A stretch of DNA of 32,000 nt from Ignicoccus hospitalis KIN4/I (GCF_000017945.1 NC_009776.1:1140001-1172000), one strand, 5' to 3'; positions 2,076-31,685 are shown, numbered from the stretch's first letter. Numbers and translations are program-made. Notes: generated by a model from the sequence alone, not told the origin.

Positions 2076-4161
2076 CCCACTTGACCAGCCCGTAGCCCAA
2101 GCCCATCGCCTCTAAGGCCCGCTTAACGACCCCCTTACCGACCACCCTCGCAGCTAGGTCAGCCCTCTTGACGAAGTCCTCTTTAGACCTTATTCCGGCG
2201 TTCCAAAGCGCCCTGGCCCTTACCCTACCTATGTAGGGTATCTGCACTAACTCGACGAGCTCTTCGGAGACGCCGTACTTCAAGCGGAGCTCCAGCTCCG
2301 CCAGCGCCTCGGAGTGTTTGTACAGACCGACGAACTTAGCTATTTCAGAATATGCATGGACCAGCCACGCGGCCGTGTCGCTCAACACTCTGAGGTCTCC
2401 CGGGTAGAAGCCGTACTTCTTCGCTATCACCTCCTCCGGCTCCTCCTTCACCCAGCTCTCCAGGGCTAGAGCGACCTTCAACGCGCTCAACGCCGTCGAC
2501 TCGCTCACGTACTCGTCATCCCTTATCAAGAGCTCGTCGAACCTCTCCTCCGCCACCCTCCAGAGCTCCCTCACCTCCGAGCTCCTCAGCCCCCTCTTGG
2601 GCATGTCCGGGGTGACGGCGACCAAGTGCAAGTACCCCAAAGCGGTAGTCTTGCCCTTGCGGCGCTTCAGGGCCCCCAGAACTACCTTTGCCCCTAGTGG
2701 GTCCACGTACTGTTTGGCGACTACCGTTCCCAACGGCGTAGCCTTGACTCCTTCCACCAAACCAGCCCCCTTTAGGAACTCCAGCGACCTCCTCGCGTCG
2801 TCTATCGCGTTTGCTGCCCCTTCTGTAACCCCGAAGAGGGTCTCCTCTATGAACTCCACCAACTCCGCCTCGCTGTTAACTGCCTTGGAGGCTATCAGCC
2901 CTAAGAGAGATCTTCTCAACGCTCGGGCGCTGGTCAAGGCGCTCCGCACGTCCTCCGGCTGGCCCAAGACGTACCTCTCGTAGACCTCCTCCGGAGGGGC
3001 CTTCGGCCTAGCTACTAACACTGAGGTGCCCTTAACGTCCAAGCCCGGCCTGCCCGCCCTCCCGGCCATCTGCTTGTACTCTGAGACCGAGATCGGCGCC
3101 TCCCCCTCGTCCGTGTACCTCGTGTACCTCTCGATCACGACCGCTCTGGCCGGCAAGTTGACCCCAGCGGCCAGCGTGGGGGTGGCGGCGACGAACTTGA
3201 TCGCCCCGGAGCGGAAGGCCTCCTCCACGAGCAGTCGGGCCTCGTTGGTGAGCCCGGCGTGGTGGAAGGCGGCTCCCCTCTCCACCATCTTCGCCAAGAC
3301 CTCGCCGAGCTCCCCTTCTACCTCAATCCTGACCCTCTCTGCCCACTCCTTGGTAACCTTATCGGGTTTCAACAACTTCGATATCTTCTTTGCCGCGTTC
3401 TCGGCCCTCTTCCTCGTGCTAGCGAAGTAGAGCGCTTGGCCCTCCCTCATGTAGTGGAGGGCCGCGTCCAAGCCCGGGTCGCTCAAGACCTCCTTCACTT
3501 CCTCGACTCTGTCCTCGAACAACACCTCGTAGCTGGACGGGTCCATTACGCCTTCCTCCAGCTTCACGGGCCTCCAGTCGTGGGTGACGAGTTCCGCGTC
3601 CAACCAAGAGGCCAAGTCCTCCGGGTTCCCCACGGTGGCCGAGAGCGCGACTATCTGCTTTCCCATTAGCTTTAACCTAGTCACTACAACCTCCAACGTC
3701 GGGCCCCTCTCCTCGTCGCCCACGTAGTGGACCTCGTCCACCACTACAGTCCCCACTTCCTTCAACCAAGGAGAGTTGTGCCTCAGCAAGGAGTCCATCC
3801 TCTCGTACGTAGCCACTAAGACGTCCGCCTCCCCCACCTCGGGGGCGTGGTAGTCGCCGACGCTCAGCGCCACTTTCGAGTCCTTGAATATTTTCTTCAA
3901 GGAGGCGTACTTTTCGAAGGCCAAGCTCCGCAGTGGGGTTAGGTAGACGGCCTTGTAGCCGTTGTCGAGGGCGTTCTTTATAGCCATCTCGGCTACGAGC
4001 GTCTTGCCCGAGCCCGTGGGAGCGGAGACCAACAAGTTCTTGAACTCAGTCAGTCCCTTCTGGAGGGCGAGCTCTTGGACGGGGAACAGCCGCCTTATGC
4101 CCCTCTCCTCCAACCACTCCTTTAACCCTAACCTCGCTCCCTCGGGGTTCTGGGCCCTCAA
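2065..4161 (-). CDS. hel308: Hel308/Hjm Ski2-like DNA helicase
   Basis: Walker A APTGSGKT, DEVH box, LSAT motif, motif VI QMAGRAGRPG, and a long C-terminal winged-helix/ratchet/HhH-like region. 698 aa. Confidence 0.9.
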   Translation of the reverse strand: MRAQNPEGARLGLKEWLEERGIRRLFPVQELALQKGLTEFKNLLVSAPTGSGKTLVAEMAIKNALDNGYKAVYLTPLRSLAFEKYASLKKIFKDSKVALSVGDYHAPEVGEADVLVATYERMDSLLRHNSPWLKEVGTVVVDEVHYVGDEERGPTLEVVVTRLKLMGKQIVALSATVGNPEDLASWLDAELVTHDWRPVKLEEGVMDPSSYEVLFEDRVEEVKEVLSDPGLDAALHYMREGQALYFASTRKRAENAAKKISKLLKPDKVTKEWAERVRIEVEGELGEVLAKMVERGAAFHHAGLTNEARLLVEEAFRSGAIKFVAATPTLAAGVNLPARAVVIERYTRYTDEGEAPISVSEYKQMAGRAGRPGLDVKGTSVLVARPKAPPEEVYERYVLGQPEDVRSALTSARALRRSLLGLIASKAVNSEAELVEFIEETLFGVTEGAANAIDDARRSLEFLKGAGLVEGVKATPLGTVVAKQYVDPLGAKVVLGALKRRKGKTTALGYLHLVAVTPDMPKRGLRSSEVRELWRVAEERFDELLIRDDEYVSESTALSALKVALALESWVKEEPEEVIAKKYGFYPGDLRVLSDTAAWLVHAYSEIAKFVGLYKHSEALAELELRLKYGVSEELVELVQIPYIGRVRARALWNAGIRSKEDFVKRADLAARVVGKGVVKRALEAMGLGYGLVKWVKP

Positions 4162-4172
4162 GCGTTAAAGTA

Positions 4173-5504
4173 ATGCTGAATACTCCGGCACTTACGGACG
4201 GCCCTTGTGAGGGCAAGAGGAACTTGAGGGTGAGGGTAGAGCCGTCGACGCCGGAGGGCTCCGTAGAGGCGCCGCCGAGCAAGAGCTGGGCCCAGAGGGC
4301 AGCCTTCTTGGCCCTCTTGGCCGAGGGGAGGAGCTCCTTTCGGAGGGTGCCCGAGTCAGACGACGTGCTCGCCTCGCTGGAGGCGGTCCGGGCTTTCGGG
4401 GCGAAGGTGGAGGCGAAGGGAGGGGAGGTTGCGATAGAGGGAGGGGAGGTCAAGGTACCCGAGGACGTAATCAACATGAGGGGCTCCGGCACGGGGGCGC
4501 GGATAGCGATAGCCGTGGGGACTTTGGTGCCTAAAGGCTTCGGGGTAGTAGTAACGGGTAACGCCAGCCTCCGCAGGAGGCCCATGACTCCGGTCGTGGA
4601 AGTGATGAACGCCTTGGGGGCGGAGGTAGTCAGCTTGAGGGGGGGACTCCTCCCGGTCGTGAGCTTCGGGGGGCTCCCGGGCGGGGAGGCGGAGGTGGAC
4701 GGGAGCGTAACCAGCCAACACGTGACGGCGGCTCTAATAGCTTCCACCAAGAGCGAGAGGGGGGCAAAAATAACCGTTAAGAACGCCGTCTCAAGGGGCT
4801 ATATCGCCTTAACGGAGAGGGTGATGAGGCTCTTCGGGGCCAAGGTCAAGTGCGACGCGAAGTACTCTTACTGCGAAGTGGAGCCCTCGGAGCTGAAAGC
4901 CGTAAGGTCTGAAGTGCCCGGGGACTACGCGCTGGCCGCCTTCCCGGCCGCCCTGGCGGTGGTGAGCGGGGGCGAGGTGAAGGTGGGCCCCCTGCCGCCC
5001 CCGGAGAGCGGCCCGGGGGACCACAGGCTGGTAGACTACCTAAGGAAGTTCGGGGTGGAAGTCAGCTACTCCGACGGCTACTTGCGCGTAGAAGGGAGCG
5101 TGAGGCCGAAGGGGACTCGAGTAAACTTGAAGGACGAGCCGGACCTAGCCCTCCCCCTGGCGGCCGTGGCGGCCGTCAGCAAGGGAGAGAGCGTGTTGGC
5201 GGGCCTCTCTCACTTAGTATATAAGGAGTCAAACAGGATAGAGACGATATTGCAAACGCTCAAGTGTTTCGGCGTGAGCGCGCGCGTCGACGGGCCGAGC
5301 ATAAGGGTCTTGGGAACGGAGTCGCTAAGGCCTTGCAGACTTAAGTGCCCGGACGACCACCGGATAGCGATGCTCGCCGCAGTGTTGGGGTCTGCCGCGG
5401 GGGCCGTTATAGAGTCCGCGGAGTGCGTCAACAAGAGCTGGCCCGGGTTCTGGGACGCGCTGAGCTCTCTGGGGGTGAAGGTCTATGTGGAGGGTCGCCG
5501 CTAA
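4173..5504 (+). CDS. aroA: 3-phosphoshikimate 1-carboxyvinyltransferase (EPSP synthase)
   Basis: Motifs PPSKSWAQRA, LKDEPDLALPLAAVAA, YKESNRIE and PDDHRIAM. The true start may be slightly downstream, near the LRVRVEP segment. Confidence 0.9.
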   Translation: MLNTPALTDGPCEGKRNLRVRVEPSTPEGSVEAPPSKSWAQRAAFLALLAEGRSSFRRVPESDDVLASLEAVRAFGAKVEAKGGEVAIEGGEVKVPEDVINMRGSGTGARIAIAVGTLVPKGFGVVVTGNASLRRRPMTPVVEVMNALGAEVVSLRGGLLPVVSFGGLPGGEAEVDGSVTSQHVTAALIASTKSERGAKITVKNAVSRGYIALTERVMRLFGAKVKCDAKYSYCEVEPSELKAVRSEVPGDYALAAFPAALAVVSGGEVKVGPLPPPESGPGDHRLVDYLRKFGVEVSYSDGYLRVEGSVRPKGTRVNLKDEPDLALPLAAVAAVSKGESVLAGLSHLVYKESNRIETILQTLKCFGVSARVDGPSIRVLGTESLRPCRLKCPDDHRIAMLAAVLGSAAGAVIESAECVNKSWPGFWDALSSLGVKVYVEGRR

Positions 5505-18917: not shown

Positions 18918-20228
18918 TTGAACACGCTTCTAAAATACTACAAGCTGCTCGTGACACTGCCGAGGGACGAGGTCGCCTACGCGCTGGCCGCCCTCTCGGC
19001 TTCTGCCTTGAGCCTTAGAGACCCCTTAACGCTGCTCTCCCTAATCGTCTTTTCTATTTTATTTTACGAGGAAAGGGTGCTGAACGGGAGGAGGCTCGCC
19101 TTCCTTATTGCTCTATCCTCTCTCGCTTCCCTAGCGGGGAAACGCCCCCTAGCTGCCCTCTTCGAGGGCGTCGCCGCGGCGCTGTACTCGCCTAACCCCC
19201 TCTTGATACTGCTTGCCCCCAACGTGCTGTACCTAGCCAGCCCGGAAGCAGTCATCGCCTTGATGCCCGTAATCCTAGCCGTAGTTTATGGAAAGCTCGT
19301 CGGCACGGTTGACTTCGGAATAGCGTGGCTCAGGGCGTGGATGGGCGACGACTACTGGCCCCTCGAGAGGTTCGTCCACGACCGCGGGAGGACTAAGGAG
19401 GCCAAGGAAATAAGGGTCGGACCGCTCGTCTTCACTGATGCACACTTCGGCTTGATGAGGTACTCAATGGGCTCGGTGCTGCCTCACCTAATGGCGTTAA
19501 ACGGGGCCGTGCCCCACCGCTTGTGCGGTTCGCACGAAAACAACCCGGCCTCGAGGTGGGAGGCCTACGCCTTGGTCAGGGGGCTAAAGCACGGGCGGGA
19601 GGGCAAGGCGGAGTTGACGAAGATGAAGGGGGAAGGAGTTAACGTCTACGTCTATTCGTTCGAAGGGGGGTGCGTCGCGGTAGTGGAACACCCCTCCGGC
19701 GCGGACGACTTGCCTTGCGTGGAGTGGAGGTGTGAGGTAGCTGACCCGCACAACGCCGAGGGGCCCTCGCCGTCCCCCCAGAAGCTCTTGGAGGAGCTGA
19801 GCTCTTGCGAGCCGACGGAGAGGGTAGAGTTGAAGGAACCGAAGGTCTACGAGGTCGAGTTCGAGGGGGAGGGGCTGTGCGAGCGCAAGGGCTTCTTAAT
19901 AGACTGGGGACCGTTCAAACACGCGGTGGCGTTTGGGAACAACGCCGTTAATGGAAAGAACAAGTTGGAAGGGATTGACTTAATCAGCACGGTAGACGAC
20001 CACAGTTGCGCGGGCTTCGGGAGGAGTACCTACGAGCCGTCCTCCTTCAAGGGCTTCAAGGTAATAAAGGGAAGAGCTGAACCGATACATATTGCAATTA
20101 ATAAGGTAAAGTACGTTGCAATGGGAGAATCTATGGTTAGCAAAGAAGCTGAAGAGGTCACGGTCAAGTCAGTGAAGGTGGGGATCGCGGCGGCCGCCTC
20201 CGCAATAATGATCGCGCTGCTGGCGTGA
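18918..20228 (+). CDS. hypothetical membrane protein (N-terminal TM bundle, soluble domain, C-terminal TM)
   Basis: 436 aa. Several hydrophobic helices in the first ~130 aa, a central soluble region (FTDAHFGLMRYSMG..., GSHENNP) and a terminal hydrophobic helix (IAAAASAIMIALLA). Confidence 0.65.
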   Translation: MNTLLKYYKLLVTLPRDEVAYALAALSASALSLRDPLTLLSLIVFSILFYEERVLNGRRLAFLIALSSLASLAGKRPLAALFEGVAAALYSPNPLLILLAPNVLYLASPEAVIALMPVILAVVYGKLVGTVDFGIAWLRAWMGDDYWPLERFVHDRGRTKEAKEIRVGPLVFTDAHFGLMRYSMGSVLPHLMALNGAVPHRLCGSHENNPASRWEAYALVRGLKHGREGKAELTKMKGEGVNVYVYSFEGGCVAVVEHPSGADDLPCVEWRCEVADPHNAEGPSPSPQKLLEELSSCEPTERVELKEPKVYEVEFEGEGLCERKGFLIDWGPFKHAVAFGNNAVNGKNKLEGIDLISTVDDHSCAGFGRSTYEPSSFKGFKVIKGRAEPIHIAINKVKYVAMGESMVSKEAEEVTVKSVKVGIAAAASAIMIALLA

Positions 20229-20300: not shown

Positions 20301-22091
20301 TTAGGGACTCAAGGAGGAGAGCTTCTCCATGAACCTGGCGTACAAGTCCTCTAGCTTCTCCAGCTCCTCGTTCCTCACAGTAAACCTGCTCCTTATGAGC
20401 TCTGCGACCTCCTCCTTTACCGCCTCCCTTATTGTGGCGACGGGTACCCCGGCGTTCACCAGCTCTTTAGCCTTCCTGTAGAAGTCTATGATTATCTTCA
20501 TCATGAGGAACTGCTTCTTCGGAGAGCAGAACGCGTCTATGGGGTCGAAGGCGTTCTGCTGGAGGAAGGCCTCCTTTATGATCCTAGCCGTCTCTATTAT
20601 CAGCTTGTCGGGCTCGCTGAGGCTCTCCGGCCCTACGAGCCTCACTATCTCCTTTAGTTCGTCCTCCTTGAGGAGTATGCTCATCATTTCGTCTCTGTAC
20701 TCCTTCCACTTGGGGCTTATGTTCTCGTGCCACCACTTAGCTACGGTGTCTACGTACAAGCTGTAGGACACCAACCAGTTGATGGCCGGGTAGTGCCTCG
20801 CGTAAGCCAAGCTCGCGTCCAGCGCCCAGAAGACCCTCACGAACCTCCTGGTGTGGCTGGTGACGGGCTCGCTGAAGTCGCCTCCTGGCGGGGAGACGGC
20901 CGAGGCTATCGTGACGCTCCCCACCCTCTCCGGCCTGCCGGGGATCCTCGCCCTGCCGGCCCTCTCGTAGTACTCCGCCAACCTGGAGGCCAAGTAGGGC
21001 GGGAAGCCCTCCTCCGCGGGCATCTCCTCCATTCTGCCGGCGATGTCTCTGAGGGCCTCGGCCCACCTGGAGGTGGAGTCGGCTATCAAGAGGCTGTCAT
21101 AGCCCATGTCACGGTAGTACTCAGCCAAGGTGACGCCCACGTAGATGGAAGCTTCCCTCGCCGCTACGGGCATGTTAGAGGTGTTGGCAACCAATATAGT
21201 CCTCTCCATAAGCGGCCTGCCGCTCCACGGGTCCTTGTAGTGGGGGAAGTTTACCAAGACGTCCGTCATCTCGTTGCCCCTCTCGCCGCAGCCGACGTAA
21301 ATGACCACCTTGGCGTCGCTCCAAGCGGCTAGCGTCCTCAAGGTGACCGTTTTGCCGGAGCCGAAGGGGCCGGGTATGGCGCCGGTCCCGCCCTTGGCCA
21401 TGGGGAACAATGTATCGAGCACCCTGACGCCGGTTATCAAGGGGGTCACTGGCTCGAACTTCTCCTTGACCGGCCTAGGCCTCCTTATCGGCCACCTGTG
21501 GTACATCTTGAGCTCTATCTCCTTACCCTCGTACTCGACCACAGCTATGGTATCTTCTATGGTGTACTCGCCGGCGGGGGCCAACCACTTGAGGGTGGCC
21601 GCCTTGTCCACCGGCACTACGTTGGGGGGCACCATGACCTTGTGCTCGATCAAGGGCGTCTCCGGGACGGTGCCTAAGATATCGTCGCCGCTCACCTTGT
21701 CCCCGGGCTTGAGCTCCGGGTTGGGGCGCCACTCCCACTTCTTGGAGCGGTCGAGCGAGGGTACCTTGATGCCCCTCTTTATGAACGGGGACTTAGCGAC
21801 CTCGTGTATGCTCTCCAGAGGCCTAAGTATGCCGTCGAAGATGTGGCTGAGGAGGCCCGGCCCCAGCTCGACGCTGAAGGGCGAGCCCGTACCCACTACG
21901 GGCTCTCCGGGAGTTATGCCTGTGGTGTCCTCGTACACTTGTATGACCGCCTTGTCTCCCGTTATTCTGGTTACCTCCCCCACGAGCCCGTCCTTGCCCA
22001 CTTCCACCACTTCGTACATTTGAACCCCTTGCATGTCCTCGGCGATGACGACCGGACCACGTACTCTAAGAACCTTGCCCTTGACTGCCAT
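20301..22091 (-). CDS. atpA: A-type (A1AO) ATP synthase catalytic subunit A
   Basis: Walker [10 protein letters not shown], an insertion typical of A/V-type catalytic subunits, and strong overall family resemblance. 596 aa. Confidence 0.97.
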
Positions 22092-27449: not shown

Positions 27450-28347
<898 letters not shown>

Positions 28348-28368: not shown

Positions 28369-28385
28369 CTTATAAGTTTAATACC
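28369..28385. promoter_or_regulatory. AT-rich TATA-like element (CTTATAAGTTTAATACC) between tRNA-Ala and the divergent operon
   Basis: Centred about 28 nt upstream of the tRNA-Ala 5' end (minus strand) and about 38 nt upstream of the ATG at 28413 (plus strand). Confidence 0.4.
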
Positions 28386-28412: not shown

Positions 28413-28949
28413 ATGGACCCTCTAACCCTCGCCCTCCACGTTTGTCTAACGTTAAACGCCACGGTTACTTCATTTCTAGCTAAAGGAGGTCTGTACGTCA
28501 ACGCGTTCGCAAACTACTTCCACTACTACGCGTCAACATTAGAGTTCTGCGTCGCTGCCAATCATACTGCCAAACTTCTGAAAGAGATAAAGACTTTGGA
28601 CGCCCTAGCCGCGGAAGTCCTCCAGAGGCCTCCGGAAGTTCAAAAAGTACTGAAACTTACCAAGCTCGTAAAGGAAATGAAAGTCTTAATCAGTCAGCTC
28701 AACTGTACCTTGAAGGAGCTCGAGAGAGCCTCTAGCGCCCTAGAGGACTTGCCCACTGTCAAGTGCGTCGGTGAGACTAGCAACCCGTACCTCGAGGTGT
28801 TCTGCGCGCTCTCGGACGCTGTTGAAAGAATTAGGACTAACGAACCGGGGCTCGTTCAGTACTTGAAGTCCAACGCGCTCGAGGCGAGCCAGAAGGTTTC
28901 CTATTATGAGAGCGCTTTAATTGGGTGCAGGATGCCCTCCTCCGGGTAG
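28413..28949 (+). CDS. hypothetical helical protein, first gene of the Cys-rich paralog operon
   Basis: 178 aa with a GGAGG Shine-Dalgarno-like element upstream. Contains three N-x-T sequons (NAT, NHT, NCT) and 6 Cys. Its stop overlaps the next gene by 25 nt. Confidence 0.55.
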   Translation: MDPLTLALHVCLTLNATVTSFLAKGGLYVNAFANYFHYYASTLEFCVAANHTAKLLKEIKTLDALAAEVLQRPPEVQKVLKLTKLVKEMKVLISQLNCTLKELERASSALEDLPTVKCVGETSNPYLEVFCALSDAVERIRTNEPGLVQYLKSNALEASQKVSYYESALIGCRMPSSG

Positions 28950-29701
28950 GCTTTTTGCTAACGCTCTTGGCCCTCGCGGCGCTCCCCTCTTTTGCCGACA
29001 TAGCGTTCAAGATATTTAATATCAACAAAACTTACGTAATAAACGTAGTGGTCGATAACCCTTCGGAAATCAAGGTCTTAATTGTCGACGGCTGCGGGAG
29101 CTCGACGCTCGCTTCAAACGCGCTGATCCTCAACCTGTGTAAAGGCTCCAAGGCCCTCTTCGTATATGACGGGTGGAGGGGAGCGGTCAGCTGCTCGAGT
29201 AAGGGGTGCTGCGCGGCAGCGGTGAAGAGGATAGAAGAGGGCTTCTTGATCAAGGCCTTCGGACGCGGCGAGCTCTTGATTGACGGAGAGGGAGTGACCT
29301 TCCTCAAGGGCGGGGTAGAGGAGGAGTGTGTTAAGAAGAAAAACGAAGTAATTTACATACCTAAGTGTAAAAAGGTTGTGTGTGTAAAGAGCGCGCCCGT
29401 CGGTGAGCTCAAGTGCAAGACGAGGGGCGGGGAGGGATGGCTAACTAAGACTTGCGTGGCAAAGGAGGCTTGTTTGGAGTGGGGGTGCGCGAAGTGGACC
29501 AGCTACCCCGTCAGGCTAGCCTTTTGTGAAGTAACCGAAAGGAGGTTGTTCCTCCTTAACCCGACGCCCTCGTCCAGCTTCTTGTTGATAAAGTTGAACG
29601 GGGGAGCGCAAGTCCTCCTACCAGCTGAGATAAAGGAGAGGCCTTACGCCATAACGGTCTACGCGGGTGGGGAGCCTTGCGCCTCCTTCCTCTGGCGCTA
29701 A
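28925..29701 (+). CDS. secreted Cys-rich protein, paralog 1 (CLEWGCAKW motif)
   Basis: Signal-like LRVGFLLTLLALAALPSFA, 19 Cys, and the motif CLEWGCAKW at 29471..29497. No family recognised. Confidence 0.7.
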   Translation: MQDALLRVGFLLTLLALAALPSFADIAFKIFNINKTYVINVVVDNPSEIKVLIVDGCGSSTLASNALILNLCKGSKALFVYDGWRGAVSCSSKGCCAAAVKRIEEGFLIKAFGRGELLIDGEGVTFLKGGVEEECVKKKNEVIYIPKCKKVVCVKSAPVGELKCKTRGGEGWLTKTCVAKEACLEWGCAKWTSYPVRLAFCEVTERRLFLLNPTPSSSFLLIKLNGGAQVLLPAEIKERPYAITVYAGGEPCASFLWR

Positions 29702-30753
29702 CCCTACTAGCCCTAGCGGCTACCCTCGAGGGCTGCGCGACCGTGAAAACAGAGGTGGAGGGCGCTACCGTGAAGTTCCTCGTGGCCGCCCTCTGCGAGG
29801 GCGAGTACAGACTGAAGGTCGAGGTCTCCGGGGCCTCCGTGAGCGCCGCCTCGGGGTTCCGGGAAGTGGCCGGGGGCACGGCGGAGTGGGAGGGCCTCCT
29901 GCGCCCCGGCGAGGTGAAGGCACTTTACTTAACCTTGAGCCACGTAGGCCCCGAAACGGGCGTCGAGTACGAACTCTCCTACGAGGGGCGCGCAGCGGCC
30001 TCCGGCACAGTAGGCCTCGGGAGGTGCCTCTCGGCGACCGCGAGGGCCCAAGCCTTGGAGGAACAGATCAAGGGCGTCGAGAGCGGTTACGGAGAGCTTA
30101 GTCTGGCCGTCAGAAACGCTTGCGACGAGGAAGTGGAGGGGTCGGCGATAGTGAAGTTCCTTTACGCCAACCCCTCCCCTAAGGCCTACGTGGAGTACTG
30201 CTCAGAGGGGCGGACCGAGGTCTACCGGGTCCCCTCTTGTGCGGAGGCCGGCGAGGGGCCCTTGCTAGCTTGTAGGACTTGGGGGGTGGGGGAGTTCAAG
30301 GTAACGGAGCTGACGGAGAGCATCTACGTCGAAAAGGGGACCTCGAGGGCCGCGCGGCGCCTCGAGGAAGTGTTAGAAAGGGTCCCTAAGTGCTTGGAGT
30401 GGACTTGTTATAGGTGGATAAGCGTTCCGAGGACCTTTAGTTACTGTGCCGTAATGAAGAACTCAGGACTGAAGAGCGACGGACACGTCGTGGGGAAGGC
30501 CGTGGTCTTCAAGTTTAGGTTAGGGCCCCACGAGTCCAAGGTAGTTAAGACCTATTTCTCCAACGTCACGCCGGCCTTTTACCTAGGCTTCTTGGAGGAC
30601 AGAGCGAAAGTGCCTTTGGCGGTAGTTAAGGTAGGAGACGAGGAGCTGACCATACCGTGGTACGCCCCAAACGCCGCCTACCCGCTGACAGTAGCAGTTT
30701 ACGCGCTGGCGCTGGTATTAATGGTGTTAGCGTTGGTAAGGCTCTTCTCCTAA
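29677..30753 (+). CDS. Cys-rich envelope protein, paralog 2 (CLEWTCYRW motif) with a C-terminal TM anchor
   Basis: TTG start. Signal-like MRLLPLALTLLALAATLEGC (Cys after the h-region), motif at 30391..30417, shared VRNACDEEVE and LGPHESK blocks, and terminal TM PLTVAVYALALVLMVLALV. Confidence 0.7.
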   Translation: MRLLPLALTLLALAATLEGCATVKTEVEGATVKFLVAALCEGEYRLKVEVSGASVSAASGFREVAGGTAEWEGLLRPGEVKALYLTLSHVGPETGVEYELSYEGRAAASGTVGLGRCLSATARAQALEEQIKGVESGYGELSLAVRNACDEEVEGSAIVKFLYANPSPKAYVEYCSEGRTEVYRVPSCAEAGEGPLLACRTWGVGEFKVTELTESIYVEKGTSRAARRLEEVLERVPKCLEWTCYRWISVPRTFSYCAVMKNSGLKSDGHVVGKAVVFKFRLGPHESKVVKTYFSNVTPAFYLGFLEDRAKVPLAVVKVGDEELTIPWYAPNAAYPLTVAVYALALVLMVLALVRLFS

Positions 30754-31685
30754 CCCTAGCGCTCTCTACCGTCGCCCTGAGCTGCGTACAAGTTACCCGT
30801 TCGTTCGTCCAGCTCTCGGACGAGTCGGAGCTGAAGCTCCGGGTATCCGTCACTTGCCCGGGCGACGTGGAAGTCAGGATAGAGGCGGACGTGGCGCCCT
30901 ACTCCGCAACCGGCCCTCTGAAGGCCGAAGGGGGCTCTTACGTCCTCGCAACGGATAAGGAAGGGGAGCTCTGGGCGTCCTTGCGCTTCCCTGGCAATCA
31001 CCCCCACATAACGATAAAGGTGTATTACGAGTCCCAGCTGGTCGACGAAACCGTCGTTAACCCCAAGGGCTGCGTAGCAGTAACCCTTCGTCCCTCCGAG
31101 GACGGCAAGGTAGTCGGCTTGGTAGTGGAGAACTTGTGCGAGAAGGAGGTAGAAGTCCCCATAAAGGTGGTCGGAGAGGGCGCAACAGAGTCGCTGAAGA
31201 GGTCTACGTGCGTCGAGAAGGTGGCCAAGCTGGGCTACGCGCGCGAGTGCGTCGAGTGGACTTGTGCTAAGTGGCTCTACGCCAGTACATGCGCGAAGAA
31301 GAGGGTCACGTGCGTTGACGGCGAGTGCGAGGAGCGGTGCGAACTCAAGCTTACCGTACCTACCGCCTGCGAGAAGTGGGCGTGTTCCAAAACGCAAATG
31401 GTTCCGACAGTAAAGTACGAGTGTACCAAGCATGATGTAGAGGCGGTTAGGAGCTCGTGGCCCCCTTCCGGCGAGGGGACCTTCGAGGGGATTCTGAAGC
31501 TAGGGCCCAAGGAGACGAAGGCGCTTAGGTTCGTCTTCAAAGGAGGCGCGAGGAAGGCTATCGTAGGGGAGTTCGAAGCGGAGCTCCCGGGGCCCCCTCC
31601 CCCGCCTTTCGAGGTGAATTACCTGCCTATGATAATAAGCTTGGTCGTTATAGTTTTCTCCTTGTCAGTGCTCCTCACTTCTTGA
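30657..31685 (+). CDS. Cys-rich envelope protein, paralog 3 (CVEWTCAKW plus degenerate CEKWACSK) with a C-terminal TM anchor
   Basis: GTG start. Basic n-region followed by ALLLTLALSTVALSC, motif at 31248..31274, shared VENLCEKEVE and LGPKETK blocks, a PGPPPPP linker, and terminal TM MIISLVVIVFSLSVLL. Overlaps paralog 2 by 97 nt. Confidence 0.7.
   Translation: MVRPKRRLPADSSSLRAGAGINGVSVGKALLLTLALSTVALSCVQVTRSFVQLSDESELKLRVSVTCPGDVEVRIEADVAPYSATGPLKAEGGSYVLATDKEGELWASLRFPGNHPHITIKVYYESQLVDETVVNPKGCVAVTLRPSEDGKVVGLVVENLCEKEVEVPIKVVGEGATESLKRSTCVEKVAKLGYARECVEWTCAKWLYASTCAKKRVTCVDGECEERCELKLTVPTACEKWACSKTQMVPTVKYECTKHDVEAVRSSWPPSGEGTFEGILKLGPKETKALRFVFKGGARKAIVGEFEAELPGPPPPPFEVNYLPMIISLVVIVFSLSVLLTS

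Follow-up and report, generated by a model that had tools for sequence, protein, structure and literature searches.

Three ancient groups of cysteine-rich, predicted exported proteins, mostly encoded side by side, in Ignicoccus-like archaea

Among archaeal genera in cultivation, Ignicoccus alone, to our knowledge, combines an energised outer membrane with a huge intermembrane compartment and dynamic endomembranes, and we know of almost no proteins that build or connect these membranes. Ignicoccus also hosts Nanoarchaeum equitans. What would three adjacent genes for cysteine-rich proteins of no recognised family do in such a cell? To address this question, we analysed a stretch of 32,000 nucleotides (nt) from Ignicoccus hospitalis KIN4/I (GCF_000017945.1, NC_009776.1:1140001-1172000; hereafter the window, with positions counted from its first letter). 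A first-pass annotation made from the sequence alone had described four co-directional open reading frames (ORFs) and proposed that ORFs 2 to 4 encode paralogous envelope proteins. Exact sequence look-up identifies ORFs 1 to 4 as Igni_1313 to Igni_1316 (ABU82489, ABU82490, ABU82491 and ABU82492, the last labelled Igni_1316). The supplements of the genome paper contain no entry for Igni_1313-Igni_1316, and neither the locus tags nor the accessions are mentioned in the literature that we searched.

ORFs 2 to 4, all on the forward strand, encode the A-, B- and C-type members of the family described below. Igni_1314 (A-type; 28925-29701) has 258 amino acids (aa), with a predicted signal peptide ending …PSFA↓D and a probable beta ectodomain containing 14 Cys, and is without a C-terminal transmembrane (TM) helix. 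Igni_1315 (B-type; 29677-30753; 358 aa; 100% identical to ABU82491/WP_012123455) has 10 Cys, a predicted signal peptide at aa 1-19 followed by Cys20, and a predicted TM helix at aa 335-357. Igni_1316 (C-type; 30657-31685; 342 aa) combines a long n-region, an h-region ending in ALSC (Cys43), a probable beta ectodomain, 14 Cys and a predicted TM helix at about aa 319-341. We favour, at a probability of roughly one half, the reading that A, B and C form an Ignicoccus-specific, disulfide-stapled hetero-oligomer of the envelope or the intermembrane compartment, with tryptophan-bearing tips as its contact surface.

A family of three ancient paralogs

The three proteins are detectably related to one another, with BLASTP E values of 1e-6 for ORF3 and ORF4 (over 267 aa), 2e-5 for ORF2 and ORF3 and 2e-3 for ORF2 and ORF4. 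Two collinear segments noticed in the first-pass annotation are indeed present in ORF3 and ORF4: V-x-N-x-C-[DE]-x-E-V-E at aa 145-154 and 157-166, respectively, and LGP[HK]E[ST]K at aa 282-288 in both. Searches of ORFs 2 to 4 against Pfam-A, NCBIfam, PHROGs and PADLOC gave no match with E <0.03 and nothing near a cutoff, and the 19 family members that we assembled have no Pfam match in common. A profile of these 19 sequences retrieved from the PDB sequences zinc-finger noise only (E >4), and no arCOG is assigned to Iho_1313-Iho_1316 (PMC3149612 Table S1). Together with the generic Foldseek matches reported below, the empty Pfam, NCBIfam, PHROGs and PDB searches uphold the earlier statement that ORFs 2 to 4 lie outside known families.

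We searched for relatives exhaustively with HMMER, using a profile of the three ectodomains against 1.84 billion representatives at E <=1e-3. The search yielded 14 proteins, three of them the queries. Ten others, of 321-396 aa and with E values from 1e-18 to 1e-3, are credible relatives; the last (P0025; 1077 aa with repeats) matches in six short stretches without the Cys pattern and was discounted as spurious. Named relatives are IPA_06445 of Ignicoccus pacificus, EYM_06000 and EYM_07165 of Ignicoccus islandicus and a protein from a vent 'Crenarchaeota/Thermoproteota' metagenome-assembled genome (MAG); the remainder come from vent metagenomes or MAGs, and genomic look-ups supplied extra neighbours that are not in the HMMER list. 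Word-indexed searches with ORF3, ORF4 and a 13-sequence profile returned self matches or a single relative, and no close relatives turned up when metagenomes were scanned with ORF3.

Alignment of 19 sequences (6 A-type, 7 B-type and 6 C-type) and a neighbour-joining tree built from it separate three orthologous groups, A, B and C, with bootstrap values of 91, 100 and 100 and similar internal topology. ORF2, ORF3 and ORF4 fall into A, B and C, respectively, and each of the six genomes represented has exactly one protein of each type. Identity to orthologs is 22-32%, with values of 26-32% for B (E 1e-25 to 1e-43) and 22-27% for C (E 1e-13 to 1e-29). The presence of three groups with one copy each in all six genomes indicates that the triplication predates the divergence of the sampled Ignicoccus-like lineages. 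The tandem duplication proposed earlier is supported as paralogy, by BLASTP and by the three groups; it is ancient and not a recent event in this genome. On the evidence of these searches, Igni_1314-1316 are members of an undescribed family restricted to Ignicoccus-like archaea, and three ancient paralogs retained as single copies in a genome with few paralogs (PMC2614490) make a candidate for a lineage-specific envelope function.

Cysteines gained and lost in pairs

Six Cys are invariant in all 19 proteins (C175, C188, C199, C239, C244 and C257 of ORF3). I. hospitalis A, B and C keep all six and have even Cys counts, as do 18 of the 19 proteins overall (10, 12 or 14 Cys). Several other Cys vary in pairs. 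Alignment columns 46 and 83 (ORF3 C20 and C40) both hold Cys in 13 of 13 B- and C-type proteins and both lack it in five of six A-type proteins; columns 166 and 213 (ORF3 C117 and C149) are occupied or unoccupied jointly; and columns 277 and 324 hold Cys in A and C, not in B. Gain and loss of Cys columns in pairs, combined with even counts, points to structural disulfides, and we predict about five to seven of them per ectodomain, with Cys20-Cys40 and Cys117-Cys149 as predicted pairs in Igni_1315 and three more expected among its six invariant Cys.

The same pattern bears on the Cys that directly follows the h-region in B and C. In I. hospitalis this residue lies in LEGC (B, with an atypical Glu at -2) and ALSC (C), which the first-pass annotation had read as lipobox-like, and its position does resemble that in bacterial and haloarchaeal lipoproteins with the lipobox [LVI][ASTVI][GAS]C. 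By contrast with such lipoproteins, a TM anchor is already present in the new family, five of six A-type paralogs lack the Cys, and the orthologs have A-x-A↓C sites: 11 B and C orthologs read A-L-A-C, A-S-A-C, A-F-A-C, A-H-A-C, A-N-A-C and similar, with Ala at -3 and -1. Cys counts are even when Cys(+1) is included. The A-x-A↓C sites and the covariation of Cys(+1) with Cys40 argue that Cys(+1) is the first mature residue, disulfide-bonded to Cys40, and not part of a lipobox. Cleavage by signal peptidase I before Cys(+1) and a Cys(+1)-Cys40 disulfide would thus explain the data most simply. The lipobox reading is accordingly not supported, and the five full-length-aligned A-type proteins without Cys40 all lack this Cys as well; the case exemplifies how a lipobox-like Cys can be better explained by signal peptidase I cleavage and a disulfide. 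Crenarchaea have been reported to appear to be without lipoproteins and often to use a signal peptidase I signal with a C-terminal TM (PMC3387779). A type IV pilin-like class III signal was also considered and rejected, because the hydrophobic stretch precedes the cleavage motif and the mature N terminus is polar (C-[VI]-[DSE]-V…), as in a class I signal.

Could the Cys instead bind metal, as Zn or Fe-S sites? Five of the seven B-type proteins (L011 6806-7996, L008 1487-2677, L014 6001-7140, L012 6001-7176 and P0017; L numbers denote fetched loci) carry a zinc-ribbon-like insertion, CxxC-x13-15-CxxC (columns 291/308 and 294/311), between long strands 2 and 3. This insertion, the lipobox-like LEGC and ALSC and a ferredoxin gene that overlaps C in one MAG are what a metal-bound or lipid-modified state would have in its favour. 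Against it stand the strict pairing of Cys gain and loss, the even counts that include Cys(+1) and the ortholog cleavage sites; moreover, I. hospitalis B is without the insertion, B and C are already TM-anchored and crenarchaeal lipoproteins are reportedly missing (PMC3387779). We regard metal binding or lipid modification in place of structural disulfides as highly improbable. None of the three I. hospitalis proteins has the CxxC…CxxC site, nor does the B protein of the vent metagenome; in the other B orthologs the insertion could bind metal. Of the earlier proposal of disulfide or metal stabilisation, the disulfide half is thus supported by pairwise covariation and even counts, and the metal half is improbable for the I. 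hospitalis proteins.

Two cysteine-stapled tryptophan sites per protein

The motif C-[LV]-E-W-x-C-x-[KR]-W, on which the first-pass annotation had based the family, occurs exactly where it was reported: CLEWGCAKW at 29471-29497 in ORF2, CLEWTCYRW at 30391-30417 in ORF3 and CVEWTCAKW at 31248-31274 in ORF4, together with the variant CEKWACSK at 31368-31391 in ORF4 (all on the forward strand). The strict motif has no other copy in the six frames of the window and did not appear in 300 shuffles. Across the family, the E-W residues are not kept, as in CYQSVCSKW, CLQSECSSW and CFETRCAKW, and C-x4-C-[AS]-[KR]-W holds. What the proteins have in common is therefore C-x4-C-x2-W, which is family-wide, and the E-W form is largely specific to I. 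hospitalis.

In the alignment, every protein carries such a site twice. Motif I falls in the predicted turn that joins long strands 1 and 2, and motif II in the one that joins strands 3 and 4. Motif II comprises CLEWGCAKW of ORF2 (columns 334-342), CLEWTCYRW of ORF3 (Cys239, Cys244 and Trp247), which a structure model places in the turn between long strands 3 and 4, and CEKWACSK of ORF4, the positional homolog of both. Motif I comprises CVEWTCAKW of ORF4 (Cys198 and Cys203), whose last Trp all C-type orthologs retain at this position, the degenerate CKKVVCVKS of ORF2 (29366-29392, +; Cys148 and Cys153) and CAEAGEGPLLACRTW of ORF3 (30238-30282, +; Cys188…Cys199), which contains a B-type loop insertion. 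Both ORF4 copies thus exist as first described, with their roles exchanged: the strong copy occupies the other site, motif I, and the copy called degenerate is the true counterpart of the ORF2 and ORF3 motifs. The motif I and motif II regions also resemble one another at the profile level, with 17 alignable columns (hhalign probability 61%, E 8e-5). Retention of the terminal Trp is complementary: A and B always have it at motif II, and C always has it at motif I. If the four strands form an antiparallel 1-2-3-4 sheet, both Cys-stapled Trp tips would be displayed at the same end, a geometry read from secondary structure only. A similar string, CVEWRC (19716-19733), lies in an unrelated DUF2070 membrane protein (ORF 18918-20228, +) and was judged a chance match.

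Membrane topology and predicted fold

Hydropathy analysis identifies N-terminal h-regions in ORFs 2 to 4 and a C-terminal TM segment in ORFs 3 and 4, and the published SignalP, PredSi and TM-domain flags agree with this topology, including a positive SignalP call for ORF2 (Giannone 2011, PMC3149612 Table S1). The signal-peptide-like h-regions and the single TM ends described in the first-pass annotation are thereby corroborated.

An AlphaFold2 (AF2) model of ORF3 built with a 13-sequence alignment reached a mean predicted local distance difference test score (pLDDT) of 86.1 and a predicted template modelling score (pTM) of 0.53; with only the three paralogs aligned, the pLDDT was 41. The model consists of a helix (aa 4-14), a beta sandwich (aa 21-126), four strands of some 20 residues each (aa 169-188, 197-218, 225-244 and 247-266), additional strands as far as aa 332, and the TM helix (aa 335-357). 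Foldseek searches of this model against the PDB and BFVD recovered generic tandem Ig-like modules and no specific relative. Matches include integrin alpha legs, transglutaminase C-terminal barrels, FnBPA/clumping factor, antigen I/II and a DUF11 protein, with E 1e-4 to 1e-3, probability up to 1.0, TM-scores of about 0.2, root-mean-square deviation of 20-35 Å and identity of 6-10%. The predicted fold class is all-beta, of an extracellular sandwich-domain type.

Comparison with known systems sets the family apart in several respects. Consecutive beta sandwiches are also found in tandem Ig-like modules such as the N2-N3 domains of the FnBPA/ClfA MSCRAMM adhesins of S. aureus, the C-domains of streptococcal antigen I/II and the thigh and calf of integrin alpha, but the new family is without LPXTG, isopeptide or latch motifs, has dense conserved predicted disulfides and is genus-restricted. 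The Pfam models of these modules match none of the 19 family members. Crenarchaeal surface proteins such as the oligopeptide-binding proteins of Sulfolobus and Aeropyrum have the same cleavable Sec signal, large ectodomain and single C-terminal TM (PMC3387779). They have no sequence or fold relationship to the all-beta, Cys-rich family described here, which is also without their Ser/Thr-rich glycosylated stalk and is not encoded beside a transporter.

Class II fusogens and the archaeal fusexin Fsx1 combine an elongated beta-rich ectodomain, conserved disulfides, aromatic stapled hairpin tips and a C-terminal TM. These traits resemble those of the new family, and we treat the likeness as a lead only, because the ectodomain here is much smaller (about 310 aa) and we found neither a trimer nor a mobile-element context. 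Class II fusogen or fusexin structures (E/E1/HAP2/Fsx1) are not among the 17 PDB Foldseek matches with E <=1e-3; a chikungunya chain (9j6d_F) ranked 46th, with probability 0.20 and a TMq of 0.12.

Gene order and a candidate envelope complex

Genes A and B are adjacent in six of six genomes. The full A-B-C tandem occurs in four: I. hospitalis, I. pacificus (L011; A, B and C of 332, 396 and 338 aa), MAG GCA_054016855 (L008; 354, 396 and 337 aa) and a vent metagenome (L009; 390, 384 and 347 aa). A and B are in tandem and C lies elsewhere in I. islandicus (L012 and L013) and MAG GCA_013154085 (L014 and L006). The genes flanking the cluster differ among genomes, and the window has no further gene in common with the loci that we fetched. 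The synteny that had been suggested as a check on the cluster is thus conserved for A-B throughout and for A-B-C in most genomes, and the invariable adjacency of A and B despite varied flanks is our main argument for a physical or functional partnership.

The analysis establishes the genes, their family, the paralogy of its members, the signals of membrane topology, a fold class and the pattern of Cys pairing; location, assembly and contact function we infer as follows. A, B and C would each be exported through a Sec-type signal peptide and cleaved by signal peptidase I, in B and C at an A-x-A↓C site that leaves Cys at +1. Each ectodomain would fold as an all-beta tandem sandwich, including the sheet of four strands of about 20 residues, stabilised by five to seven disulfides. 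B and C would be held by their C-terminal TM helix, an anchoring that would make the ectodomain face the intermembrane compartment or the cell surface. A, B and C might then assemble as a hetero-oligomer whose C-x4-C-x2-W hairpin tips contact a protein, glycan or membrane partner, with a role in envelope architecture, tethering or adhesion.

The same data could also describe three independent, fast-evolving surface receptors or adhesins that form no complex and are neighbours through shared regulation or history. Ortholog identity of just 22-32% with the Cys kept is what exposed proteins under diversifying pressure would show, C is encoded elsewhere in I. islandicus and MAG GCA_013154085, and the Foldseek neighbours FnBPA, ClfA-like proteins and AgI/II are single-chain adhesins. 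Independence sits less well with the constant A-B and frequent A-B-C linkage amid different flanks, with one copy per type per genome and with the complementary manner in which the invariant Trp motif is kept among A, B and C. We consider independent proteins possible, though unlikely.

A more specific version of the hetero-oligomer would place the trio in the inner membrane or its protrusions, with elongated, disulfide-stapled beta arms whose Trp-rich tips reach the outer cellular membrane or other endomembranes. The trio would then be an archaeal membrane-tethering or fusogen-like complex of a new kind, belonging either to a matrix of tethers and filaments or to the sites where membranes touch and fuse. 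Electron tomography has revealed membrane contact and fusion sites and a still unidentified matrix of 3-6 nm tethers and filaments (PMC5468417). A link to this matrix is made improbable by the proteomic data described below, and we hold this placement to be very unlikely.

Two observations from these loci concern genes next to family members. In I. islandicus, a gene 37 nt upstream of A (L012 4372-4938) encodes a 188-aa protein that is not homologous to ORF1 and combines a signal peptide and a C-terminal TM with a CxxCH haem-c motif and a weak Reeler-like beta domain (Pfam E 0.011). In MAG GCA_013154085, the C-type gene overlaps a gene for a 76-aa 2x[4Fe-4S] ferredoxin by 4 nt (L006 7774-8004 and 8001-8966), and a type I-A-like CRISPR-Cas cluster (Csa5, Cas7/DevR, Cas3 and HD) lies about 2 kb upstream.

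Expression, strain variation and a lost anchor

Several findings weigh against a working complex of the three proteins. In two of the six genomes, C is encoded apart from A-B, and the differing neighbour contexts provide no functional clue. The pTM of 0.53 leaves the domain arrangement and the geometry of the hairpin tips uncertain. A C-terminal TM is present in all five A orthologs and missing in I. hospitalis A. Igni_1314 ends '…VYAGGEPCASFLWR', with its stop codon within the codons of the B signal peptide, and comparison of this end (29650-29701) with the A genes of L008 (418-1482), L009 (6786-7958), L011 (5823-6821), L012 (4975-5994) and L014 (5066-6004) suggests that I. hospitalis A has lost its anchor, as if the anchor-coding segment had been deleted. 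Whole-cell proteomics that covered >75% of predicted I. hospitalis proteins (Giannone 2011, PMC3149612) recorded zero spectral counts for Iho_1313-1316 in both pure culture and co-culture with N. equitans (Table S1). The first-pass annotation had named lack of expression as an outcome that would speak against its cell-surface complex, and these zero counts weaken the case for one.

Independent assemblies of the same I. hospitalis locus likewise count against a functional trio, because they differ from the window only within A and C, with B identical everywhere. The assembly from Logan ERR9765778 (L003) lacks a single nucleotide at each of two positions, 29620 (codon 232 of A) and 31613 (codon 319 of C); these deletions, its sole differences over 8.4 kb, frameshift the 3' ends of A and C. 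In the European Nucleotide Archive (ENA) assembly ERZ926311 (L005), GAG is changed to TAG at 31215 (C codon 187), and there is one synonymous change (31253). These variants may be assembly errors, or real inactivating variants in laboratory stocks; if they are real, A and C are dispensable in such stocks.

The cluster might accordingly be silent or decaying in I. hospitalis, its members being lineage-specific genes without current function in the strain. The zero spectra, the nonsense mutation and frameshifts, the A protein without a TM anchor and the B protein without the CxxC…CxxC insertion of most B orthologs would all fit. Decay is harder to reconcile with ORFs of 258-358 codons that the reference, a MAG and a mock-community assembly all carry intact, and with the retention of all six invariant Cys and even Cys counts in all three proteins. 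Single-TM, disulfide-rich proteins such as these are also easily missed by shotgun proteomics. Decay would also be at odds with the streamlined I. hospitalis genome, in which both paralogs and pseudogenes are few (PMC2614490). We judge a silent or decaying cluster distinctly unlikely; expression of the cluster appears to be conditional or very low in culture. Should the genes be truly silent or dispensable, the present finding would amount to the annotation of a new orphan family only.

The tRNA-proximal region and Igni_1313

The cluster adjoins a tRNA-Ala(TGC) gene (28271-28347, -; ARAGORN; Rfam RF00005 at 68 bits) that diverges from ORF1, and the 65-nt spacer between tRNA-Ala and the ORF1 ATG contains an AT-rich, TATA-like element, TTATAAGTTTAATAC (28370-28384). 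The distances from the element to the 5' end of the tRNA (about 22-27 nt) and to the ATG of ORF1 (about 40 nt) make it, by position, a probable bidirectional promoter core. In L014 of MAG GCA_013154085, the corresponding spacer has diverged except for the core (T/A)ATAAGTTT, whose conservation supports a shared TATA-like element. The proximity to tRNA-Ala and the common AT-rich element, both noted in the first-pass annotation, are thus present, with the core of the element conserved in L014.

A position beside a tRNA gene also evokes the cargo of a virus or mobile element integrated there, encoding envelope or fusogen-like glycoproteins. The restricted distribution and the Cys-rich, beta-rich, C-terminally anchored architecture reminiscent of class II fusogens and fusexins would suit such an origin. 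Yet the window contains no integrase, it has no att repeat derived from the tRNA (tRNA-Ala fragments of at least 13 nt recur elsewhere in it only as T-arm matches in the other two tRNAs), and the GC content of the cluster (0.56-0.60) is like that of the rest of the window. Genes around the cluster have housekeeping roles (A-ATPase A subunit, RFC and an aminoacyl-tRNA synthetase). Moreover, the cluster is located 5' of the tRNA, and in other genomes, L014 excepted, it is found among different housekeeping genes and without a tRNA. The proteins have no PHROG match and no tblastn match in 50,697 phage and archaeal virus records, and their BFVD matches are generic. A mobile-element origin is therefore most improbable in our view.

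ORF1 (Igni_1313; 28413-28949, +) encodes a soluble, probably helical protein of 178 aa with six Cys, five of them conserved. Hydropathy reveals no hydrophobic segment that could serve as a signal peptide or TM helix, and searches of Pfam, NCBIfam, PHROGs and PADLOC assigned no curated family, with only noise-level matches to helical bundles and prefoldin. The three N-x-S/T sequons previously reported are present. One homolog was detectable (35% identical, E 4e-33), encoded in L014 of MAG GCA_013154085 at 3668-4201, where it again diverges from an identical tRNA-Ala(TGC) (3532-3608) and has A-B downstream of it; a pattern scan for ORF1 across GTDB genomes recovered only this MAG. ORF1 is thus tied to the cluster in two of six genomes and absent beside it in the other four. 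Igni_1313 is probably a soluble, helical, Cys-containing protein that is co-oriented with the cluster in two genomes, and it may be an accessory factor.

In L014, the ORF1 homolog is separated from A by a gene for a 277-aa P-loop protein (4191-5024) with the Walker A motif GPPASGKT, weak matches to AAA_16 and PADLOC mad8 and no I. hospitalis counterpart. The beta-propeller-like Igni_1312 was considered as its counterpart and is not homologous.

Gene models and neighbouring features

With the longest-ORF starts, consecutive ORFs from ORF1 to ORF4 overlap by 25, 25 and 97 nt, as the first-pass annotation stated for four co-directional ORFs. These sizes depend on the choice of start; the GenBank start of ORF2, at 28955, removes the ORF1/ORF2 overlap. 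Spacing in orthologous clusters ranges from a 4-nt overlap to gaps of about 42 nt and is compatible with translational coupling. The TTG start of ORF3 at 29677 agrees in the alignment with the 'MR…' N termini of B orthologs.

For ORF4, RefSeq places the start at 30867 (WP_052570371, 272 aa), which removes the signal peptide and Cys43. Both features are kept in all C-type orthologs, which align through the ORF4 h-region and Cys43, and we therefore prefer the 342-aa GenBank model, obtaining a corrected gene model for Igni_1316. GTG 30657 is the sole canonical start upstream of the signal-peptide region and is preceded by GAGGAG at 11 nt.

Antisense to ORF4 runs an ATG-initiated ORF of 225 aa (30756-31433, -) that is absent from all annotations and whose presence is probably a side effect of GC-rich coding sequence. 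Elsewhere in the window, the gene for the catalytic A subunit of an A/V-type ATPase (20301-22091, -) has no other ATPase subunit gene beside it among the ORFs scanned, consistent with the operon fragmentation reported for the I. hospitalis genome (PMC2614490).

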